DNA from: a virus
Taxonomy: Duplodnaviria > Caudoviricetes
DNA: 29,918 bases
Strand: one strand, 5' to 3'
IMG/VR virus record: IMGVR_UViG_3300027007_000024
Coordinates: 1-29,918 of that record
Made by a program: the position numbers and the translations under genes. The notes under the pieces are model-generated. The model ran no database searches. It was not told where the DNA came from and saw only the letters and a list, made by a program, of their open reading frames with translations. Positions 1,884 to 9,766 of this stretch are shown here, one piece after another; the stretch's first letter is position 1; each line of letters begins with the position of its first letter.

Positions 1884-2570
1884 ATGTCCACGCTCTCCCG
1901 GTCAGACCTGGAGGCGATGGACCGCGACCAGCTCATCGAGGAGATCCTCGACCTGGACCGCCGGGTGGCCGACCTCGAGGAGGAGATCGAGTCCCACCGG
2001 GAGCACGCCAACCGGGACCGCGCGAAGATCCGCGCCGAGCGCGACGAGCTCCTCGAGGACCTCCGCGACGAGATCGCCGACCTTCAGGACGACCTCGACC
2101 GGTCCGAACGCCGCCTCCACCAGGAGCGCTCGAAGGTCGTTCGCCGCGTCGCCAACATCGAAGACGAACTCGGCTTCGAGGACGAGGACGTCATCGCCCT
2201 GGCCGAGGGTGGCGAAGCGGCCCTTCGAGAGAGCCCACTCTCTCGACTCCTGGAGGCGGGCCCGGAGGCCGTCGACGACCGCTCGTCGGAGACGCTCTAC
2301 CGAGCGGAGACGCTCGCGCGCAACTGGATCCGCTGGGGAGGGTCGAAGGAACAAGATGGAGAGATCGTCGAGCGGACGCTGGCCTCCAGTCGCGACGACC
2401 TCCGAACGCGCCTCGAGGACGCCCGCAACGAGACCCTCCGGTGGAAGCAGGTCTACCGCGCCATGCTGAAGATCGCCGAGATGGGGCCGGAGAACATCCG
2501 CCTCGTCGAGCGGGACGACTGGGGGAAGACGCTCGTTCAGGACTGCCGCGGAGGTGACCGTCTCCGATGA
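1884..2570 (+). CDS. coiled-coil protein with probable C-terminal winged-helix DNA-binding domain
   Basis: About 100-aa acidic heptad-rich N-terminus; the C-terminal helix-turn-helix/wing pattern (WKQVYRAMLKIAE...IRLVER..WGKTLV) is inferred. Confidence 0.75.
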   Translation: MSTLSRSDLEAMDRDQLIEEILDLDRRVADLEEEIESHREHANRDRAKIRAERDELLEDLRDEIADLQDDLDRSERRLHQERSKVVRRVANIEDELGFEDEDVIALAEGGEAALRESPLSRLLEAGPEAVDDRSSETLYRAETLARNWIRWGGSKEQDGEIVERTLASSRDDLRTRLEDARNETLRWKQVYRAMLKIAEMGPENIRLVERDDWGKTLVQDCRGGDRLR

Positions 2571-2795
2571 CGCTCACTGACAGCCGTCGTCAGTGGCGGT
2601 CCAGGGGTGACCGTCAGAGAGGGGGGTGGTTTGGCCGAAAACCACCCCCCTGACCACAACCGCACCTTACCCCCACCGCAACCGCATTTGTGTTTGTGTG
2701 GGTTCGCTACTGACGGGTAAACCGGCAGACAGCCGGCGACAGCCATGTCGTCTGCCGGTTTCACCGAATCGCTCACTGACGACGGCTGTCAGTGG
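2571..2795. repeat. nested inverted-repeat region (origin- or recombination-site-like)
   Basis: 21-bp exact inverted pair 2575-2595/2774-2794; 13-bp hairpin 2620-2632/2639-2651; 12-bp hairpin 2719-2730/2750-2761; ACCGCA short repeats. Confidence 0.85.
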
Positions 2796-2815
2796 ACCAG
2801 CTCCAGAGACCACCG

Positions 2816-3013
2816 ATGAGCAAAGCACACCACGGACGTCAGAACAGTGGCGCGAGTACCCTCTCGTGGCGATACGCCTGCCCGGCGGCTCGTCACCAGG
2901 GGGTTCGACGGCGGTCGGACGGCATCTACTGCCAGTCCTGCGACCGGCGATTTCAGCAGGTCATCGACCTCCGGGACGACGTCGCGATCCCGGTGGAGGA
3001 GACCACGTCGTGA
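2816..3013 (+). CDS. small zinc-ribbon protein
   Basis: YACPAARH...YCQSCDRRF; GTGA overlap with the next gene. Confidence 0.65.
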   Translation: MSKAHHGRQNSGASTLSWRYACPAARHQGVRRRSDGIYCQSCDRRFQQVIDLRDDVAIPVEETTS

Positions 3014-3222
3014 CGGTCCTCACCGCGGAGGACCTCGAGGGAGCGCACACTTATCTCGCTGAAGCGCGGCCAGACTGGTCGCGATCGATGGCCGCCATCA
3101 GGAACGTCGGCGGGCCCTGGGAGTGTCCGGGGTGCGGTGCGGCCAGTCTCCTCGTCTACCGCTGCTCGCAGTGCGGCCGGGACCTCGCCGGGAGTGGCAC
3201 CTCTCACGGTCGCCAATCCTGA
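3010..3222 (+). CDS. small CPxCG zinc-finger protein
   Basis: ECPGCG...YRCSQCGRDLAG; this is the C-terminal part of track ORF 2626..3222. Confidence 0.7.
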   Translation: MTVLTAEDLEGAHTYLAEARPDWSRSMAAIRNVGGPWECPGCGAASLLVYRCSQCGRDLAGSGTSHGRQS

Positions 3223-3269
3223 CCCACCCCCCATCCCCCCGGCAGAGGGCCTGAAACGGCAGCCTACAC

Positions 3270-3286
3270 GAACCCTTATAAGTTAT
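3270..3286 (+). promoter_or_regulatory. BRE/TATA promoter, candidate late-operon promoter
   Basis: GAACCCTTATAAGTTAT in an intergenic gap; downstream leader has a hairpin at 3338-3360; a long co-directional gene run follows. Confidence 0.6.
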
Positions 3287-3370
3287 CGGGCACGAGCATC
3301 TGGTAAGGAGCCTGTCAGAGGGCCCCGGTTCTCCCCCCGGCGGCGTTCACAGCGCCGTCGATACCCAGCC

Positions 3371-3943
3371 ATGTCTGTCACACCCATGACTCAGGAGCCG
3401 CGCGTCCAGTGTGCTCACTGCGACGGGCCGCGCGACCCGAACGCCTCGGTCGCGGGATCGTACTGCTCGACGGAGTGCTACTACCGCGACAAGGGCGAGG
3501 GCATCCTCTCGGAGCTGGAGCACGACCACACGGTCTGTTCCACGTGTTTCGCGACGCTGAAGGAGATCGAGACGCCCCGGCAGGACGATCCAGACTGCTA
3601 CGTGGGCATCGAGCACCCGACCGTCAACGCCACCAGGGCGGACGGCGCCCCCCATCCTGCAGACACGGACGAGCTGGGCGTCCTGCGACCGGAGCCGTCG
3701 ACGCACACGCCGCTGGCCTGCCGGTGTGGCGCCATCGAGAACGAACGCGACGAGACGATCGAGCGCATCGAGGGCGCGGACGTCCTGCTGAACCTCTGGG
3801 GTCAGCTCTGTCGCCTCTACACCCAGGGCGCGATCGACAACGCCCCGAGCAAGGACCGGCTGTTCGACGGCCTTCGCGAGCAGGGCCGCGACTGGGCGTA
3901 CGCCATCGGCGTCAGCGTCTGGGGTGGCGACGAGCAGACATGA
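3371..3943 (+). CDS. multi-Cys zinc-binding protein (CxxC...YCSxxC, TRASH/MYM-like N-terminus)
   Basis: CAHC, YCSTEC, CSTC and CRCG motifs; acidic composition from ATG 3371 onward. Confidence 0.75.
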   Translation: MSVTPMTQEPRVQCAHCDGPRDPNASVAGSYCSTECYYRDKGEGILSELEHDHTVCSTCFATLKEIETPRQDDPDCYVGIEHPTVNATRADGAPHPADTDELGVLRPEPSTHTPLACRCGAIENERDETIERIEGADVLLNLWGQLCRLYTQGAIDNAPSKDRLFDGLREQGRDWAYAIGVSVWGGDEQT

Positions 3944-4194
3944 GCACGCAGATCAGCATCTCCCGGGACCCGCAGGACTACCGTCTCTCGGTCCACGCCG
4001 GGCAGCGTCACAAGGAGCGAGACATCCCGAAGGAGGCCATCGCGGACACGATCGCGACGGGCGAGGTCCGCCACACCGACGACGCCACGCTACGGCTGTT
4101 CGTCAAACAGCACCCGGGCGATCCGGCACCCATCGGCGTCACGGCTGACGTCGAGACAGGCGAGGTGGTCACGGTGACCTGGCGAGACACCTGA
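3940..4194 (+). CDS. DUF4258-like protein (RelE/BrnT-type RNase-fold candidate)
   Basis: LSVHAGQRHKERDIPKEAIADTIATG...VVTVTW matches the HA..R..ER.I...I..G...V.TV pattern; ATGA overlap. Confidence 0.65.
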   Translation: MSTQISISRDPQDYRLSVHAGQRHKERDIPKEAIADTIATGEVRHTDDATLRLFVKQHPGDPAPIGVTADVETGEVVTVTWRDT

Positions 4195-4199
4195 CCCCA

Positions 4200-4530
4200 C
4201 GGCCGAAACCCGACGCGACGGCGCCGACATCGAAAGACCGTCGCGTGTGACGCTCCGGACGCGGCGAGGCCAGACCACACTCCAGAGACCTCGAGCTTGG
4301 TCCGTCATCGTCGAGAGCGAACGTCCCGCTACACACCCGCGACCCGCGTCCGACCCGTGCCGGGATTGCTCGCAGGCCGACCCACCCTCGGGACAACCGA
4401 GACGCGTCGGCGTACCCACTGCGGGCGGCCGAGAGGCCCCGGCACACGTTCCATTCCACCCCTTTCGACTCGCGACAGGTTCACCGGGTTCGACTCCCGG
4501 CGCGAACGTGACAGACTCCCTTTCGGGAGG
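4200..4530 (+). ncRNA. putative multi-domain structured RNA ending in a mini-tRNA element
   Basis: Many nested helices, GAAA/GAGA tetraloops, canonical T-arm CCGGG-TTCGACT-CCCGG; no acidic ORF in any frame. Confidence 0.6.
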
Positions 4531-4617
4531 ACCTCGAATGCCATGCCGAAGCCAACGCCAGACCCGAAACACAGAGCGAGTATCGAACTCAAATGCCTCG
4601 GTCGGTCGGTGATTCCC

Positions 4618-4821
4618 ATGCCGGAGGACAACGGTCGGAAAGCCGCGAAGGCCGTCGCGCTGATACTCGTCTCAGTGTGGTCGGTCATCACCCTAAGCCT
4701 CACCCTCGAGGGCGTCGCCGCCGTCTCGCCACCGTTCTACGGCGTGTTCACGGCCGTCGTCTTCGCCCTCGTGGGCAAGCTCTGGGACATCGAAGTCAAG
4801 CAGTATCTCGGGAGGCGTTGA
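4618..4821 (+). CDS. 2-TM membrane protein (holin-like candidate)
   Basis: Two hydrophobic segments, basic C-terminus, GGTGA SD. Alternative in-frame start at 4543. Confidence 0.7.
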   Translation: MPEDNGRKAAKAVALILVSVWSVITLSLTLEGVAAVSPPFYGVFTAVVFALVGKLWDIEVKQYLGRR

Positions 4822-4824
4822 CGC

Positions 4825-5100
4825 ATGGGCTACAACCTCGACGAGTTCGCCGACGACCACGAGGAGCAGCACGCCCTCGGGACGGGCTTCGGCGTGGGCG
4901 TCCTGCTCGCCGCCGGGCTCCAGTTCGCCCTCGGCCCGGCACTGGCCGGCCTGGTCCTGGTCTTCGTCGTCCGCATCGTCCGGCAGAAGCGGCCCGCCGC
5001 CGCAGACACGCAGGACCTCCTGAACGACATCCGCCGCGAGCCTCACTACTTCGCCACCGCCCTCGGCGCTGGCCTGCTCGCGGCACTGGCCGTCATCTGA
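4825..5100 (+). CDS. small multi-TM membrane protein
   Basis: Two to three hydrophobic segments; tight gene packing. Confidence 0.75.
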   Translation: MGYNLDEFADDHEEQHALGTGFGVGVLLAAGLQFALGPALAGLVLVFVVRIVRQKRPAAADTQDLLNDIRREPHYFATALGAGLLAALAVI

Positions 5101-5103
5101 CCC

Positions 5104-5325
5104 ATGCACCGGACCATCACGAACGTCGTCGCGGGCCTGGTCGTCCTGAGCGTCCACGGCGCCTGGCTGGCGATGGAGTGGACGGGCCGAGAGCCCGACT
5201 CGATCATCATGCTCGGTGGCGTGGCGATCTCGATCGGCGCCGCGTACCACCTCTGGGACGGCAGCATGGACTCGGGCGTTGAGGCGGTCGGAGAGCTGCA
5301 GGGCGAAGAGGGCGGCGAGGAGTGA
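5104..5325 (+). CDS. 2-TM membrane protein
   Basis: Two hydrophobic helices and an acidic tail. Confidence 0.75.
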   Translation: MHRTITNVVAGLVVLSVHGAWLAMEWTGREPDSIIMLGGVAISIGAAYHLWDGSMDSGVEAVGELQGEEGGEE

Positions 5326-5329
5326 GGGC

Positions 5330-5524
5330 ATGACCTACATCTTCGAGTGCGACGGGTGGTGCGGCGAGACGCACACCGACGACCCGCCGGCACTCACCTG
5401 CGAGTTCTCCGAGCGGTGGTTCAAGACCTCCGAGCACGCTGCCGCCCTGAAGTCCCTCGGGTACTCCCCGGGCGACCTCGTCACGCTCTGCGGTCCCTGT
5501 GCCCGCCGACTTCTCGAGGCCTGA
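5330..5524 (+). CDS. small zinc-binding protein
   Basis: CDGWC...LCGPC. Confidence 0.7.
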   Translation: MTYIFECDGWCGETHTDDPPALTCEFSERWFKTSEHAAALKSLGYSPGDLVTLCGPCARRLLEA

Positions 5525-5526
5525 CC

Positions 5527-5796
5527 ATGCCCGACGACTACCGCGACCGACATCGGGAGCGGACCCACGAGGACAGTTCCGCCAACTACTGCCCGGGCTG
5601 TGGCCGACCGCTCGACACTGCCGACCGCGTCGACGTCCACCACCGCGACGGCGACCCCACCAATGGCAGTCCGGACAACCTCCGCGTCCGCTGCCTGCGC
5701 TGCCACCTGAAGGGCGAGCACGATCGCAACGTCGAACCGGGCAGCCCGTCCGGTCCCCGGAGCGGGCCTCGGCGGCCGCGGACGGCGCCGCGGTGA
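5527..5796 (+). CDS. HNH endonuclease (terminase-associated position)
   Basis: CPGCG...DVHHRDGDPTNGSPDNLRVRCLRCH; directly upstream of the terminase genes. Confidence 0.9.
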   Translation: MPDDYRDRHRERTHEDSSANYCPGCGRPLDTADRVDVHHRDGDPTNGSPDNLRVRCLRCHLKGEHDRNVEPGSPSGPRSGPRRPRTAPR

Positions 5797-5833
5797 GGCC
5801 GTACCGCTGTCCCCACGACGGACACCCCATGCC

Positions 5834-6310
5834 ATGACATCTGACGAGCCACTCCCCGACCGTTGCGGCGCCGAGTGCCGCGACAGTGGGTACTGCACGC
5901 AGTATCCCGTTCAGGGGAGCGAGCGCTGTCGGATGCACGGCGGGTCGTCGCCGAAGGGCAAGGACCATCCGAGCTACGAGCACGGCGCCTACAGCGAACA
6001 CCTCCGGTCGGACCTCTCGGACGACGAACGCGAGGCGATGGACGACCTCGTCGACGGCCTTCAGGACGAAGAGGCCAGTCTGGACGTCGTCCGGGAGATG
6101 GCGGCGGAGGCGGCGCTGAAGTACAAGCGCTCGGGTGACCACCGCTTCCTTCGGGAGTTCCGCCAACTGGTCTCTGAGTTCAACCTGGCTCCGAACGCCG
6201 ACCACCTCGAGGTCGACGCCAACGTCGACGCCGAGCACTCCCTGGACGACGAGACGCGCGAGGTCGTCCGGGACGTCCTGAACAAGCGCCGGGAGGCCAG
6301 CGATGAGTAG
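5834..6310 (+). CDS. terminase small subunit (putative)
   Basis: RCRMHGG...HGAYS motif; immediately upstream of and overlapping TerL. Confidence 0.75.
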   Translation: MTSDEPLPDRCGAECRDSGYCTQYPVQGSERCRMHGGSSPKGKDHPSYEHGAYSEHLRSDLSDDEREAMDDLVDGLQDEEASLDVVREMAAEAALKYKRSGDHRFLREFRQLVSEFNLAPNADHLEVDANVDAEHSLDDETREVVRDVLNKRREASDE

Positions 6311-7877
6311 CGTCGAGCAGATCGAGCAGGCAGTCGCCGACCCCGAACTCCGGCGAGACGTCCTCAACCCCTTCGAGGACTGCCCGTGGGACGAGTTCCT
6401 GAACGAACTCACCTACGGGTACATGAAGGGCGAGCGCGACCCGTGGACACCCGTCGCGGACGTCCACCTCGACTGGGTCGACCGGTTCACCTCCAACACC
6501 AACGTCGGCATCCTGGCCCACCGTGACTCACTGAAGACGACCATCACGCTGGGCATCCTCATCGCCCACCTGGAGTACATTGACGGGTTCCGAGCTCACT
6601 GGATCACCAACACGCAGGGGCAGGCCCACAAGAAGGCCGACACCGAGTTCTGGAAGCTCGTCGAGCGCAACGAGTGGCTGACGAACCTGAACGCCCAGCC
6701 AGTCCAGGACACGAAGGAGGTCAAGGAGTTCCAGAACGGGTCGGTCCTCCACGCCGGGTGGCTCTTCGGGGCGATCGAGGGCGACCGCTCGCACCTGCTC
6801 GTCCTCGACGACGTCATCAAGGAGCACGGCGACGGCGAGACGGAGAACATCCTCACCTGGATCGAGGGCGTCACGGTTCCGATGGTCAAGGACAGCGGGA
6901 AGACGGCCGTCATCGGGACGCGCAAGCGCCCGGACGACATCTACTCGCACCTGATCGACCGCGACGCCTACGACTTCACCGAGTACCCGGCCGTCCTCGA
7001 GGAGTGGGACCGCGAGTTTTCGGACGACGACTCCTGGGAGGCTCGCCGCCCGCCGGAGGACGTCTACACCACGGTCGACGGCCGGCCGCTCGTCGACGAC
7101 GAGGTCCACGTCCTCTGGCCCGACGCTCGAGGCCCAGAGTACCTCGCCTCGAAGTTCGACCAGATGTCTCGCCACCTCTTCTGGCGGGAGTTCTGCATGG
7201 TCATCCGCGGCGCCGAGGGAAACCTTATCGACGCCGGTGACGTCAACGAGCTGGTCGACGACGGTGGGTGTTCCATCCGCAACCAGACCCCACCACGCAC
7301 CCTCACGCCGGGCGCCGGCGAGGCGACGATCGTCGCTCACGACCCGGCGCAGTCCTCGACGGGCGACAAGGCGGCCTTCGTCGCCTTCCGCGTCGGCCGT
7401 GACGGCCGTCGCACGCTACTGGACGCCCACGCCGAGACGGGCATGTCGCCCTCCCGGATCAAGGCGACGCTGGCCGACCTGGACGAGCGCTACGACCCCG
7501 CCATGGTCGTCATCGAGTCCAACGGCATCCAGCAGTACGTCGCCAACGACGCCATCGAGTTCTCGGCGTCGCTGCGCTCGAAGGTAACCGGCATCCCGAC
7601 GACCGGGAAGAAACACTCCTGGGAGAACGGCGTGCCCCGGCTCCGAACGCTCGTCGAGAACGGCGGCATCCAGTTCTTCAGGGGCCACGACGGCACGGAG
7701 AACTTTATCCAGGCGGCGCTCTCCCTCGAGCTTCGAGATGGCAAGCTGCGGGGCCACACACCGGACCTCATCGCGGCGTGGTACATGGCCGAGCAAGGGA
7801 TCCGCCGACTGGAGAAAGTCGGTGCACTGGACCCTGAGGAAGAGACCGACAGCAGCGGAGGCATTTCGTACCTATGA
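6303..7877 (+). CDS. terL: terminase large subunit
   Basis: Walker A-like AHRDSLKTT, Walker B LLVLDD, coupling motif VIGT, nuclease IVAHDPA, IESNGIQ, C-terminal PDLIAA. Confidence 0.93.
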   Translation: MSSVEQIEQAVADPELRRDVLNPFEDCPWDEFLNELTYGYMKGERDPWTPVADVHLDWVDRFTSNTNVGILAHRDSLKTTITLGILIAHLEYIDGFRAHWITNTQGQAHKKADTEFWKLVERNEWLTNLNAQPVQDTKEVKEFQNGSVLHAGWLFGAIEGDRSHLLVLDDVIKEHGDGETENILTWIEGVTVPMVKDSGKTAVIGTRKRPDDIYSHLIDRDAYDFTEYPAVLEEWDREFSDDDSWEARRPPEDVYTTVDGRPLVDDEVHVLWPDARGPEYLASKFDQMSRHLFWREFCMVIRGAEGNLIDAGDVNELVDDGGCSIRNQTPPRTLTPGAGEATIVAHDPAQSSTGDKAAFVAFRVGRDGRRTLLDAHAETGMSPSRIKATLADLDERYDPAMVVIESNGIQQYVANDAIEFSASLRSKVTGIPTTGKKHSWENGVPRLRTLVENGGIQFFRGHDGTENFIQAALSLELRDGKLRGHTPDLIAAWYMAEQGIRRLEKVGALDPEEETDSSGGISYL

Positions 7878-9766
7878 GCAACGACGACAGCAAGGTTTCA
7901 GTCAACGTCGAGGGTGTCGGGGGCGAGAGCCAACTATCGAAGGCCACCAACAGCACGCAGCTGGCCGACCGGCGCATCCGGCACCTGGGGAAGGGCATCA
8001 AGCCACCCTACAACCCAGACCGGCTCGCCGCCTTCCTCGAACTGAACGAGACGCACGCCGCGGCCGTCCGGAAGAAGGCTCGCTACGAGGTGGGCTTTGG
8101 CTTCGAGATCGTCCCGGTCGACGACGTCGACCCGGACGACGCCAGCGACGAGGAACGCGAACTCGTCGAGGACTTCTGGCGATCCCGAGAGTCGCGCTGG
8201 CAGACCGGACCGCAGCGGTCGGCCGAGCCGACCACTCCAGAGGAGGTGAAGGAACTCGCCCGGCAGGACTACCACTCCATCGGGTGGTGTTGCCTCGAGA
8301 TCCTCGCGAACGCCGAGGGCGACCCCGTCGGCCTGGCGCACGTCCCTGCGAACACCGTCCGGGTTCGCAAGCCCCGGACCGGCGAGGACGACGACCGCGC
8401 CATCGACCACGACTCACCCGACGGGATGGATGCCCGAGGATACGTACAGGTTCGCCACGGCCGTCGTCGCTTCTTCGGCGTCGCCGGCGATCGCTACCGC
8501 GGCCAGGGCGAAGACGACACCCGCGAGCCCATCTTCGTCGACAAGGAGAACGGCGACGTCGCGATGGGAAGCGCGGAGCCGCTGGACAACGAGCCCGCGA
8601 ACGAACTCATCTTCATCCGCAACCCCAGTCCGCTGGAACAGGACTACGGCGTCCCCGACTGGGTGAGCGCCATCCGGACGATCTCCGCCGACGAGGCGGC
8701 CAAGAGCTACAACCGGGACTTCTTCGACAACGACACCATCCCGCGGTTCGCCATCAAGGTGACCGGGGGCGAACTCTCCGAGGAGTCCCGGAAGGACCTC
8801 CGGCAGATGCTCGACGGTCTCCGCGAGGAGAACCACCGGGCGGTCATCCTCGAGGTGGAGAAGTTCGTCGACGAGCAGGGCTTCGGCGACGATGGGACTG
8901 ACCTGGAGATCGAACTCGAACCGCTGGGACAGGGCATCTCCGAGGAGATGGACTTCCGGCTGTTTCGCGAGAAGAACGAACACGAGATCGCCAAGGTCCA
9001 CGAGGTCCCGCCCATCCTCATCGGCGTCACGCAGACCTCGAACCGGAGCAACTCTCAGGAGCAGGTCGCTGACTTCGCGAACAACGTCATCGCGCCGGAG
9101 CAGCACAAGTTCGCCGAGCGCCTGTTCCAGATCATCCACCAGGAGGCACTGGGCGTCACCGACTGGACCATCGAGTACGAACTCCGCGGCGCCGACCAGC
9201 CCAAGGAGGACGCGTCGGTCGCAGAGCGAAAGATCCGCGCCGTCCGTGGGGCCGTCCCCGTGAACCGCGCCCTCGAGATGATCGGCGAAGACCCACTGCC
9301 AGAGGACCACCCTGTCGACGGCCAGACGCTCGTCGCCGACGTGGGAAGCGACACGCAGCCGGTCGGCGGCGATGACGGCGGCCCCGGGCAGACAGCGGCG
9401 TACCTTCCCCCGCCAGAGAACAAGATCGGCGAGCGGGACTGGGACGAGGTCAAGGAGCAACTGATATCGAAGGACCCGATCGAGACGGTGCAGTTCAACA
9501 GCTCGAACCTCGACGAGGGGCTGTACGACTTCGGGGAGCAGGAGCTATACCTATCCTTCCTGCGGGAAGAGGGCCAAAGCAGCCTCTACGCCTACGTCGA
9601 CGTCCCGACGACGGAGTGGTCCGGGCTGGTGAACGCCAGCAGCGCGGGCGGCTACCACTACGATTCCATCCGGCTGGAGTACCCCTACATCGAGATCACG
9701 AACTTCCACGACCGACTGCCCGAGGGGCAGATGCCGGACGATCCACCGGAGGACATCCCGCTATGA
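7874..9766 (+). CDS. portal protein with C-terminal KTSC domain
   Basis: Follows TerL; portal motifs YGVPDW, YNRDFFDNDTIP, EIAKVHEVPPILIG, SNRSNS; KTSC signature from about aa 534. Confidence 0.9.
   Translation: MSNDDSKVSVNVEGVGGESQLSKATNSTQLADRRIRHLGKGIKPPYNPDRLAAFLELNETHAAAVRKKARYEVGFGFEIVPVDDVDPDDASDEERELVEDFWRSRESRWQTGPQRSAEPTTPEEVKELARQDYHSIGWCCLEILANAEGDPVGLAHVPANTVRVRKPRTGEDDDRAIDHDSPDGMDARGYVQVRHGRRRFFGVAGDRYRGQGEDDTREPIFVDKENGDVAMGSAEPLDNEPANELIFIRNPSPLEQDYGVPDWVSAIRTISADEAAKSYNRDFFDNDTIPRFAIKVTGGELSEESRKDLRQMLDGLREENHRAVILEVEKFVDEQGFGDDGTDLEIELEPLGQGISEEMDFRLFREKNEHEIAKVHEVPPILIGVTQTSNRSNSQEQVADFANNVIAPEQHKFAERLFQIIHQEALGVTDWTIEYELRGADQPKEDASVAERKIRAVRGAVPVNRALEMIGEDPLPEDHPVDGQTLVADVGSDTQPVGGDDGGPGQTAAYLPPPENKIGERDWDEVKEQLISKDPIETVQFNSSNLDEGLYDFGEQELYLSFLREEGQSSLYAYVDVPTTEWSGLVNASSAGGYHYDSIRLEYPYIEITNFHDRLPEGQMPDDPPEDIPL

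Follow-up and report, generated by a model that had tools for sequence, protein, structure and literature searches.

Introduction

Transfer RNAs that lie within a longer transcript must be cut out of it by RNase P and tRNase Z. In lambdoid phages, tRNAs are located between the late promoter and the lysis genes, and the multi-domain structured prophage RNAs GOLLD and ROOL occur near tRNA genes. Haloferax volcanii has a tRNA-like t-element upstream of its 5S rRNA that serves as a substrate for tRNase Z and RNase P, and an RNA flanked by t-elements is released in vivo (PMC4326828). For the cultured virus ChaoS9, a tRNA was annotated whose function the authors left open, considering a regulatory function possible and a role in att; the available text of PMC6471424 describes the tRNA only, not the surrounding 500-nt structured region with its kink-turn.

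The window analysed here (29,918 nt) is DNA from a tailed virus of haloarchaea, whose large terminase (TerL) is 56–58% identical to those of phiH1 and phiCh1. Upstream of its packaging genes lies a gap that is a genuine structured non-coding locus. It very probably belongs, as a divergent member, to a modular family of tRNA-like RNAs of phiH1/phiCh1-related viruses that is apparently undescribed. The motifs of this family are known but newly arranged, and they are located at the head of the lysis–packaging genes. A full-text literature search yielded no description of this locus or of a structured ncRNA family in haloarchaeal tailed viruses. The locus is undescribed in the available text of PMC6471424, PMC6210493, PMC7911831, PMC8651126, PMC4326828, PMC4946936, PMC5737381, PMC12550061 and PMC6298567, and the terms tRNA, non-coding, intergenic and stem-loop do not occur in the accessible part of the phiH1 paper (PMC6210493). 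In the accessible content of six supplementary files of PMC10690425, the two Halobacteria rows were Haloruvirales, not tailed viruses; files 1, 2 and 4 could hold related motifs.

Genomic setting and limits of the gap

Table 1 Features of the window around the structured gap (positions in nt of the window)
Feature	Position	Strand	Evidence and remarks
TATA-like box	3275–3283	+	Candidate operon promoter; sole TATA-like site within 2400–6300
CxxC (zinc-finger-like) protein	3371–3943	+	tblastn, phrog_18924, annotation
DUF4258-like small protein, adjoining the gap on its 5′ side	3940–4194	+	PF14076, E 2e-4, under the curated cut-off
Non-coding gap, 348 nt, carrying the structured RNA	4195–4542	+	No codon periodicity, no tblastn matches
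Domain A hairpin, 9 bp	4213–4246	+	z −2.74, pair probability 0.98
Conserved block CGCUCCGG and long-range helix P (4256–4264/4344–4352) around a variable interior (domain B)	4251–4352	+	Comparison with relatives
Domain C with linker, tRNA-shaped three-way junction	4346–4451	+	Top match of model R3, covariation, z −4.30
GACAA pentaloop hairpin, tip of the long arm, anticodon position	4387–4401	+	19-element comparison, enrichment
Pyrimidine/U tract after domain C	4459–4466	+	Possible terminator or cleavage signal
Mini-tRNA (t-element-like): 5-bp acceptor-like stem, ACAGG linker, canonical T-arm 4484–4500	4470–4505	+	Sole T-arm match in the window
Small hairpin; GGAGG in 3′ arm possibly the ribosome site of the next gene	4516–4530	+	Pair probability 0.98
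Three small membrane-protein genes, putative lysis cassette	4543–4821, 4825–5100, 5104–5325	+	ORFs, homologues
HNH gene, small terminase (5834–6310), large terminase (6303–7877)	5527–7877	+	Domain and homology matches

The genes around the gap (Table 1) are arranged in the order CxxC, DUF4258-like, gap, three small membrane genes, small ORF, HNH, TerS, TerL, portal, protease and capsid, in a same-strand operon of roughly 20 kb with the gap near its head. No TATA-like, i.e. promoter-like, box was found immediately 5′ of the gap and, since the region 2400–6300 holds a single such site, at 3275–3283, the gap probably lies inside the operon and not at its start. For the CxxC-gene homologues, a comparable box was located 81–100 nt upstream in 6 of 15 cases; these homologues stand upstream of the RNA slot in many relatives, the positional counterpart in phiCh1 being ORF89. 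A sigma-70 scan, which gave no promoter, was set aside, as that model is inapplicable to archaea. In the slot of the window's small membrane genes, phiH1 and phiCh1 carry a gene annotated as holin, and the first ORF of at least 45 aa after the last RNA module encoded a strongly hydrophobic stretch in 16 of 34 loci (two of the misses being wrong-frame calls).

The leader between the TATA-like box and the CxxC gene (3284–3370) contains a GC-rich hairpin by eye, and phiH1 and phiCh1 have a gap of roughly 280 nt at the matching position. The first membrane gene (4543–4821) has in-frame starts at 4543 and 4618, the second preceded by GGTGA; with its two starts and conserved N-terminal extension, it resembles dual-start holins. 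At the record start, a C5 cytosine DNA methyltransferase is encoded (1–858; PF00145, E 9e-52).

Because this N-terminal extension is conserved in homologues, the start of the first membrane gene was assigned to the ATG at 4543, which sets the gap at 4195–4542; the gap of about 330 nt that the first-pass annotation had placed at 4200–4530 is thus present, with its limits corrected and its length raised to 348 nt. GC content at codon positions 2 and 3 of the gap was 0.65–0.72 in all six frames, versus a GC2 of 0.39–0.58 and a GC3 of 0.80–0.95 in nine genes, and the translated gap gave no tblastn match (E ≤ 0.01) in 215 loci. The conserved protein-coding signal that would have spoken against an RNA was absent from both analyses, which support the gap as non-coding.

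The gap was identical in two further assemblies (L167 and L176; related loci are cited by L numbers), which possibly represent the same DNA as the window, and no variant across it was found in three DNA contig sets. Searches with blastn and nhmmer against 69 loci returned nothing significant (best E 0.02, inside the coding extension), and blastn against 50,697 phage records gave just three chance matches of 29 nt. An exact 16-mer scan returned 77 loci, five of which were true members by eye and the remainder chance. ARAGORN detected no tRNA in the window. Rfam covariance models, applied to positions 3500–5500 at E ≤ 10, gave two chance matches to mir-3150 outside the gap and nothing else, tRNA included; in 5, 5 and 8 related loci, they gave true tRNAs or nothing. 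No match to GOLLD, ROOL, pRNA, tmRNA, SRP, RNase P, self-cleaving ribozymes or C/D or H/ACA guides was obtained, nor was a box C/D or H/ACA guide architecture seen, and the absence of any Rfam match in the gap bears out the initial impression that the RNA belongs to no known family. Readings as hammerhead, HDV-like ribozyme, tRNA intron (bulge–helix–bulge), H/ACA RNA or 11-nt receptor were dropped by eye, as the required strand order or bulges were missing, and were negative in Rfam.

Folding of the gap

All stems listed in the first-pass annotation were present at their coordinates: domains A (4213–4221/4238–4246) and B (4256–4264/4344–4352) pair at 9 of 9 positions each, the outer helix of domain C joins GTGCCGG from 4357 to CCGGCAC at 4439–4445, and its inner helix (4368–4375/4419–4426) pairs at 8 of 8. 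The stem of GCCGAC (4376) and GTCGGC (4406), the GACAA hairpin (4387–4401), the GAGA hairpin (4427–4438), the T-arm (4484–4500) and a hairpin at 4516–4529 were likewise confirmed. As a whole, the gap, which had been described as almost fully pairable, folded no better than chance (z about −1.2 to −1.27 on the + strand and −1.43 on the − strand), and 11 of 100 (+) and 9 of 100 (−) shuffles were equally good. The same comparison set domain C apart from its shuffles (z −4.30, 0 of 200 as good; minus strand z −2.68); domains A and B and the mini-tRNA gave −2.74, −2.02 and −0.12. These z values are inflated by domain limits picked by hand, and the lowest value among 100 unselected 91-nt windows was −3.45. 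The structured feature is real, though extensive pairing, the main argument first offered for it, fails to show this; the signal comes from domain C and from the relatives.

Two smaller elements were upheld in part. The CGAGG/CCTCG stem proposed within domain B is pairable but lies outside the minimum-energy fold, in which GACCA/TGGTC and CTC/GAG replace it. The mini-tRNA has its T-arm (5-bp stem, canonical T-loop, pair probability 0.95), but its 5-bp acceptor (4470–4474/4501–4505) is not part of the predicted fold, competes with a rival pairing (4445–4451/4504–4510) and was reached by 42% of shuffles; among 26 elements with a T-arm, the other 25 have a 6–7-bp helix here. Linkers like its ACAGG were found in L022, L038, L039, L053, L195, L254 and L286.

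On the 5′ side, domain A occupies the position of the relatives' kink-turn hairpin, and no homologue of domain A was found. The family's kink-turn pattern was absent from the window, where a generic scan gave four loose candidates, none resembling the family consensus. The block CGCUCCGG is common to 12 of 13 relatives, and helix P was 100% paired in eight relatives, with one-sided changes only. On the 3′ side, the motif TTT(T)C(C)A(G)TAC was enriched upstream of TerL in the relatives (22/2/5/1 for upstream +, upstream −, downstream + and downstream −); the pyrimidine tract of the window has just its CCCCTTTC part.

Domain C and its counterparts in relatives

Domain C, preceded by an ACCC linker, has the outline of a tRNA: a 7-bp acceptor-like helix (4357–4363/4439–4445), followed by A, encloses a long arm (4368–4426) and a hairpin (4427–4438) at the T-arm position, which in the window is capped by a GAGA tetraloop and in other members is a true T-arm. 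A tRNA cloverleaf with D arm, 7-nt anticodon loop and T arm is not formed by the window's RNA, whereas neighbours in the relatives' slot do form one. The first-pass annotation, which had recognised a mini-tRNA further 3′, overlooked the tRNA shape of domain C itself, as well as the modularity of the locus, which in relatives includes true tRNA genes and, on the 5′ side, a kink-turn. The window's long arm ends in a GACAA loop (4392–4396); across 19 elements, the loops were GACAA (11), GAUAA (4), GGCAA (3) and GGUAA (1), on stems of varied sequence that had been selected for pairing.

In L061, L005, L025, L056, L067, L015, L203 and L204, a 4-bp helix of the long arm lies between an asymmetric internal loop (UAU-N-GG facing AC) and a UACC-like bulge. 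The window's long arm has a degenerate form of this arrangement, which may be a protein site or a tertiary contact.

Three models were built, from six elements of the L061 subtype (R1), from eight elements of the L054 subtype (R2) and from five relatives sharing the window's junction sequence, with the window itself excluded from training (R3). R1 recovered six held-out elements in relatives at E ≤ 0.01, and 21 of its 32 pairs change on both sides; domain C was absent among its 84 window matches at E ≤ 10, the best of which was a false positive inside terL. R2 found the held-out elements of L193, L057 and L062 and three strong matches in genomes unflagged by the TerL search; its weak genome matches L214 and L215 were rejected as coding sequence, and the gap was matched only at E 0.66 (rank 5 of 7). 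R3 ranked 4346–4451 first in the 30-kb window (30.1 bits, E 0.00075) with no non-standard pair and, over 607 kb, returned the window at E 0.015 plus the held-out L160 and L028. A three-block profile from 13 relatives placed position 4349 first in the window with 37.6 bits, the next score being 26.4 and the maximum among shuffles 33.1 (0 of 200 as high); for this profile and for R3, the training sets were picked with the window's motifs in view.

Covariation in syntenic gaps, a check that the first-pass annotation had proposed, was found where alignments were fitted to the structure: in the 8-row R3 alignment, both partners vary in 23 of 28 pairs, and 99.5% of cells are paired. Without such fitting, alignments of close members had double changes in only 2 of 26 and 4 of 28 pairs. 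The compensatory changes of the fitted alignment show the fold of domain C to be common to the relatives, and the window's RNA is very probably a member of their family, albeit a divergent one.

Survey of the slot in related viruses

Of the loci gathered via TerL and the CxxC protein, 78 extended at least 3 kb upstream of TerL; 51 of these, including the window, were non-redundant. Three patterns were counted in 244.5 kb upstream of TerL (sense, then antisense strand) and in 219.9 kb downstream (again each strand in turn). Kink-turns occurred 29/0/0/0 times, GRYAA pentaloops with a closing G-C pair and a stem of 5 bp or more 19/0/1/0 times, and T-arms 37/8/4/4 times; five of the matches lay in coding sequence by eye. 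With at least one motif in 40 of 51 loci, and a kink-turn followed by a GRYAA hairpin or T-arm within 550 nt in 20, the locus is present in the majority of the relatives examined, and three cultured viruses (phiH1, phiCh1 and ChaoS9) have it too. The 11 loci without any motif include three of the four closest TerL relatives (L001, L003 and L019); the element is thus either replaced or dispensable.

As the patterns had been defined partly on the same loci, a held-out test was run on 74 loci fetched by the kink-turn pattern alone, 59 of which were new. Among 18 with an acidic, halophile-like proteome, 10 had a GRYAA hairpin, T-arm or core motif downstream and none had a GRYAA hairpin or T-arm upstream; the other 41 gave 4 downstream versus 1 upstream. 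The sense-strand-only enrichment, the held-out test, the covariation and the lack of an Rfam match together favour an undescribed haloviral structured ncRNA on the + strand, as first proposed; its transcription is predicted.

In the T-arm elements, a 6–7-bp helix directly follows the T stem in 25 of 26, a helix length that shuffles often attain (sum of fractions 8.7 across the 26 elements). The relatives' kink-turns have C-stem, GAU bulge and tandem GA/GA in 29 of 32 cases, at least two following pairs in 27 of 32, and −1b:−1n = C:G with 3b = C in 26 of 32; kink-turns of this last type fold in metal ions alone (available text of PMC6298567). A pairing of CGAUG with a downstream CAUCG, suggested by RNAalifold, was not accepted, because these pairs never vary and the downstream partner reads CACCG or UACCG in several relatives.

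True tRNA genes were also located in the slot, namely Phe(GAA) in L016, L064, L203 and L204, Asn(GUU) in L172, and Tyr(GUA) with Phe(GAA) in L205. The forms grade from such tRNAs over a tRNA with altered anticodon arm (phiH1, called 'tRNA-???' by ARAGORN) and elements with acceptor, long GRYAA arm and T-arm to the form of the window.

The slot tRNAs are biased to Phe(GAA), present in five loci. Very long versions (400–600 nt), which contain either a further kink-turn-like motif or several tandem tRNA-like units, occur at L043:1704–2320, L217:2036–2575 and L268:2063–2480. A second clean mini-tRNA (6-bp acceptor, short linker, T-arm) lies directly after the portal stop codon at L022:9483–9525, L038:5370–5412 and L039:9497–9540 and is absent from the window. 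In G274:C1, equal-scoring copies of provirus TerL plus kink-turn at 531525 and 592267, about 60.7 kb apart, represent a tandem provirus or an assembly duplication.

Among the cultured viruses, the phiH1 region at about 54,790–55,120, under the hypothetical ORF PhiH1_455, combines a kink-turn with a GGCAA element and a tRNA-like 3′ module, and phiCh1 has a kink-turn and a T-arm under the hypothetical ORF91. PhiH1_455 (L147:4795–5148) and phiCh1 ORF91 (L148:3465–3686) are probably spurious gene calls. In ChaoS9, a kink-turn lies in the gap and the 3′ module is the annotated tRNA-Arg, to which the phiH1 3′ module is 71.7% identical.

Proposed processing and alternative explanations

In the leading reading, which we favour tentatively and at slightly less than even confidence, the gap RNA is a tRNA-derived leader within the late transcript that is cut by host RNase P and tRNase Z. 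As part of the late message, it would be transcribed from the TATA-like box near 3280, and its modules would descend from tRNA genes. RNase P would cut 5′ of the acceptor-like helices and tRNase Z 3′ of them, the likeliest cut site being the mini-tRNA at 4470–4505, which retains a T-loop; these cuts would liberate short stable RNAs, and the message of the packaging and membrane (likely lysis) genes would begin at a new 5′ end. A protein may bind the GACAA loop, and L7Ae may bind the kink-turn in relatives that have one. The true tRNA genes in the slot (L016, L064, L203, L204, L172 and L205) and the ChaoS9 tRNA-Arg are consistent with processing, as are the graded series from tRNA to the window's form, the held-out matches and 21 of 32 double-changed pairs of R1, the sense-strand T-arm enrichment upstream of TerL (37 vs 8/4/4), the 6–7-bp helix in 25 of 26 elements, and the Haloferax volcanii t-element as precedent (PMC4326828, available sections). 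Against it, domain C presents a GAGA tetraloop hairpin instead of a T-loop and may thus be a poor substrate, the window's mini-tRNA has an acceptor of only 5 bp that the fold does not predict and 42% of shuffles match, 11 of 51 relatives are motif-free, and R1 and R2 miss the window's RNA. Processing also leaves the conservation of the GRYAA loop and kink-turn unexplained; these features point to protein binding, which gives rise to the tRNA-mimic and antitermination alternatives. A wider proposal, possible but doubtful, is that of a tRNA-derived ncRNA family of temperate haloarchaeal tailed viruses whose anticodon arm has turned into a protein-binding arm and whose products, cut by host enzymes from the late transcript, are mostly L7Ae/kink-turn-capped RNPs that mimic tRNA to disarm defences or time lysis. 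If true, it would reveal a widespread archaeal-virus ncRNA class hidden under spurious phiH1/phiCh1 ORF calls.

A trans-acting role of the RNA after its release, as a mimic of tRNA or a protein decoy that would, late in infection, soak up a host defence or RNA-binding factor (a tRNA-cutting toxin, L7Ae, or factors of tRNA processing or translation), is unlikely on present evidence; it is compatible with processing, which would then be the release route only. Anti-defence cargo is often modular and comes with spare tRNAs, as does the slot, which is highly modular; the tRNA outline is kept while the anticodon arm is swapped for a conserved GRYAA-capped arm, and the ion-folding kink-turn type (26 of 32) suits a free-standing RNA. 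The GACAA pentaloop has, besides, a known protein-binding GNRA-like fold (available text of PMC12550061). An arm without anticodon would, however, not imitate the substrate of an anticodon nuclease, and no promoter-like box directly precedes the gap. We consider it quite unlikely that the gap is a nut/put-like antitermination or attenuation site in cis, at which the viral CxxC or DUF4258-like protein or L7Ae binds the GACAA loop or kink-turn and RNA polymerase reads through the U-tract into the lysis and head genes. Its location at the head of a roughly 20-kb same-strand operon, a loop sequence identical to that of P22 boxB, the U-rich motif enriched upstream of TerL (22 vs 2/5/1) and alternative pairings around helix P, seen by eye in L054-type members, would fit; yet a 5-nt loop match is weak, the GRYAA hairpin and kink-turn occur in only 19 and 29 of 51 loci, and antitermination needs neither acceptor/T-arm geometry nor true tRNAs. 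Little credence is given to a functionless decaying tRNA array or integration-site relic, the helices of which survive because of recent descent from tRNA genes: the slot holds degenerate as well as true tRNAs, the modules are very unlike between viruses, the gap is missing in some close relatives, and an att role was considered for the ChaoS9 tRNA (PMC6471424, available text), but the features foreign to tRNAs (long arm, GRYAA loop, kink-turn) show the strongest conservation and covary, and they recur in held-out loci (10/18 downstream vs 0/18 upstream).

Chance pairing in a GC-rich spacer, with a coincidental likeness to the relatives, is very improbable. The whole-gap z of about −1.2, the failure of R1 and R2 and training sets chosen with the window's motifs in view would allow for it, but domain C has a z of −4.3 and is the top match of R3 across 30 kb, all modelled pairs being standard, no shuffle exceeds 33.1 bits with the three-block profile, for which the window reaches 37.6, and the RNA occupies the same genomic slot as in the relatives. 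An equally remote prospect is a packaging or virion-associated RNA that binds portal or terminase, one of three functions offered by the first-pass annotation. KTSC domains have a nucleic-acid-binding role, and the virion RNA of phiCh1 is reportedly host-encoded. The packaging genes are nearby, the window's portal (7874–9766) has a C-terminal KTSC domain (residues 542–603; PF13619, E 5e-11), a mini-tRNA follows the portal gene in L022 and L039, and phiCh1 is described as containing DNA and RNA by a reference title. KTSC matches were found in 24 of 30 non-redundant relatives, and not in the phiCh1 stretch examined; the RNA motif occurs in 19 of the 24 KTSC-bearing loci (5 without) and in 3 of 6 KTSC-less ones, so there is no tight coupling. 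One RNA subtype, moreover, goes with a different terminase, not picked up by the window's TerL search (L211), the phiCh1 pac site lies in terS, and the modules vary far more than the motor, too much for a motor component, with the close TerL relatives L001, L003 and L019 motif-free.

Comparison with known systems

The locus bears on how archaeal viruses time late and lysis genes and why odd tRNAs are carried, and it offers defined sites in genetically workable hosts. With phi29 pRNA, it shares the position of a structured viral RNA near packaging genes; there is no Rfam match, the virus is of the TerS/TerL kind, with a pac site in phiCh1, and the RNA does not track the motor genes. Compared with GOLLD and ROOL, the haloviral RNA, which again has no Rfam match, is much shorter (150–600 nt), modular and variable, and is not one large conserved fold. 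Its GACAA pentaloop on a GC-rich stem resembles P22 boxB (PMC12550061, available text); unlike in P22, the loop tips the long arm of a tRNA-shaped domain and the host is an archaeon. The genes upstream of the gap encode CxxC and DUF4258-like proteins. The relatives' motifs fit the definition of the standard kink-turn, an L7Ae site, given in the available text of PMC6298567, whereas the window's own RNA has no kink-turn. The ChaoS9 tRNA-Arg occupies the same slot as the window's gap, and this hitherto unexplained tRNA is thereby placed in a wider context; unlike it and other phage tRNAs, most modules have no anticodon loop and cannot decode. As with the t-element, a tRNA-like structure would lie inside a longer transcript in a haloarchaeon, and the window's mini-tRNA, with its T-arm and short acceptor-like stem, is predicted to be cleaved; unlike the t-element, it is viral, stands before protein genes and forms part of a larger modular RNA that has a GRYAA arm, with a kink-turn added in relatives.
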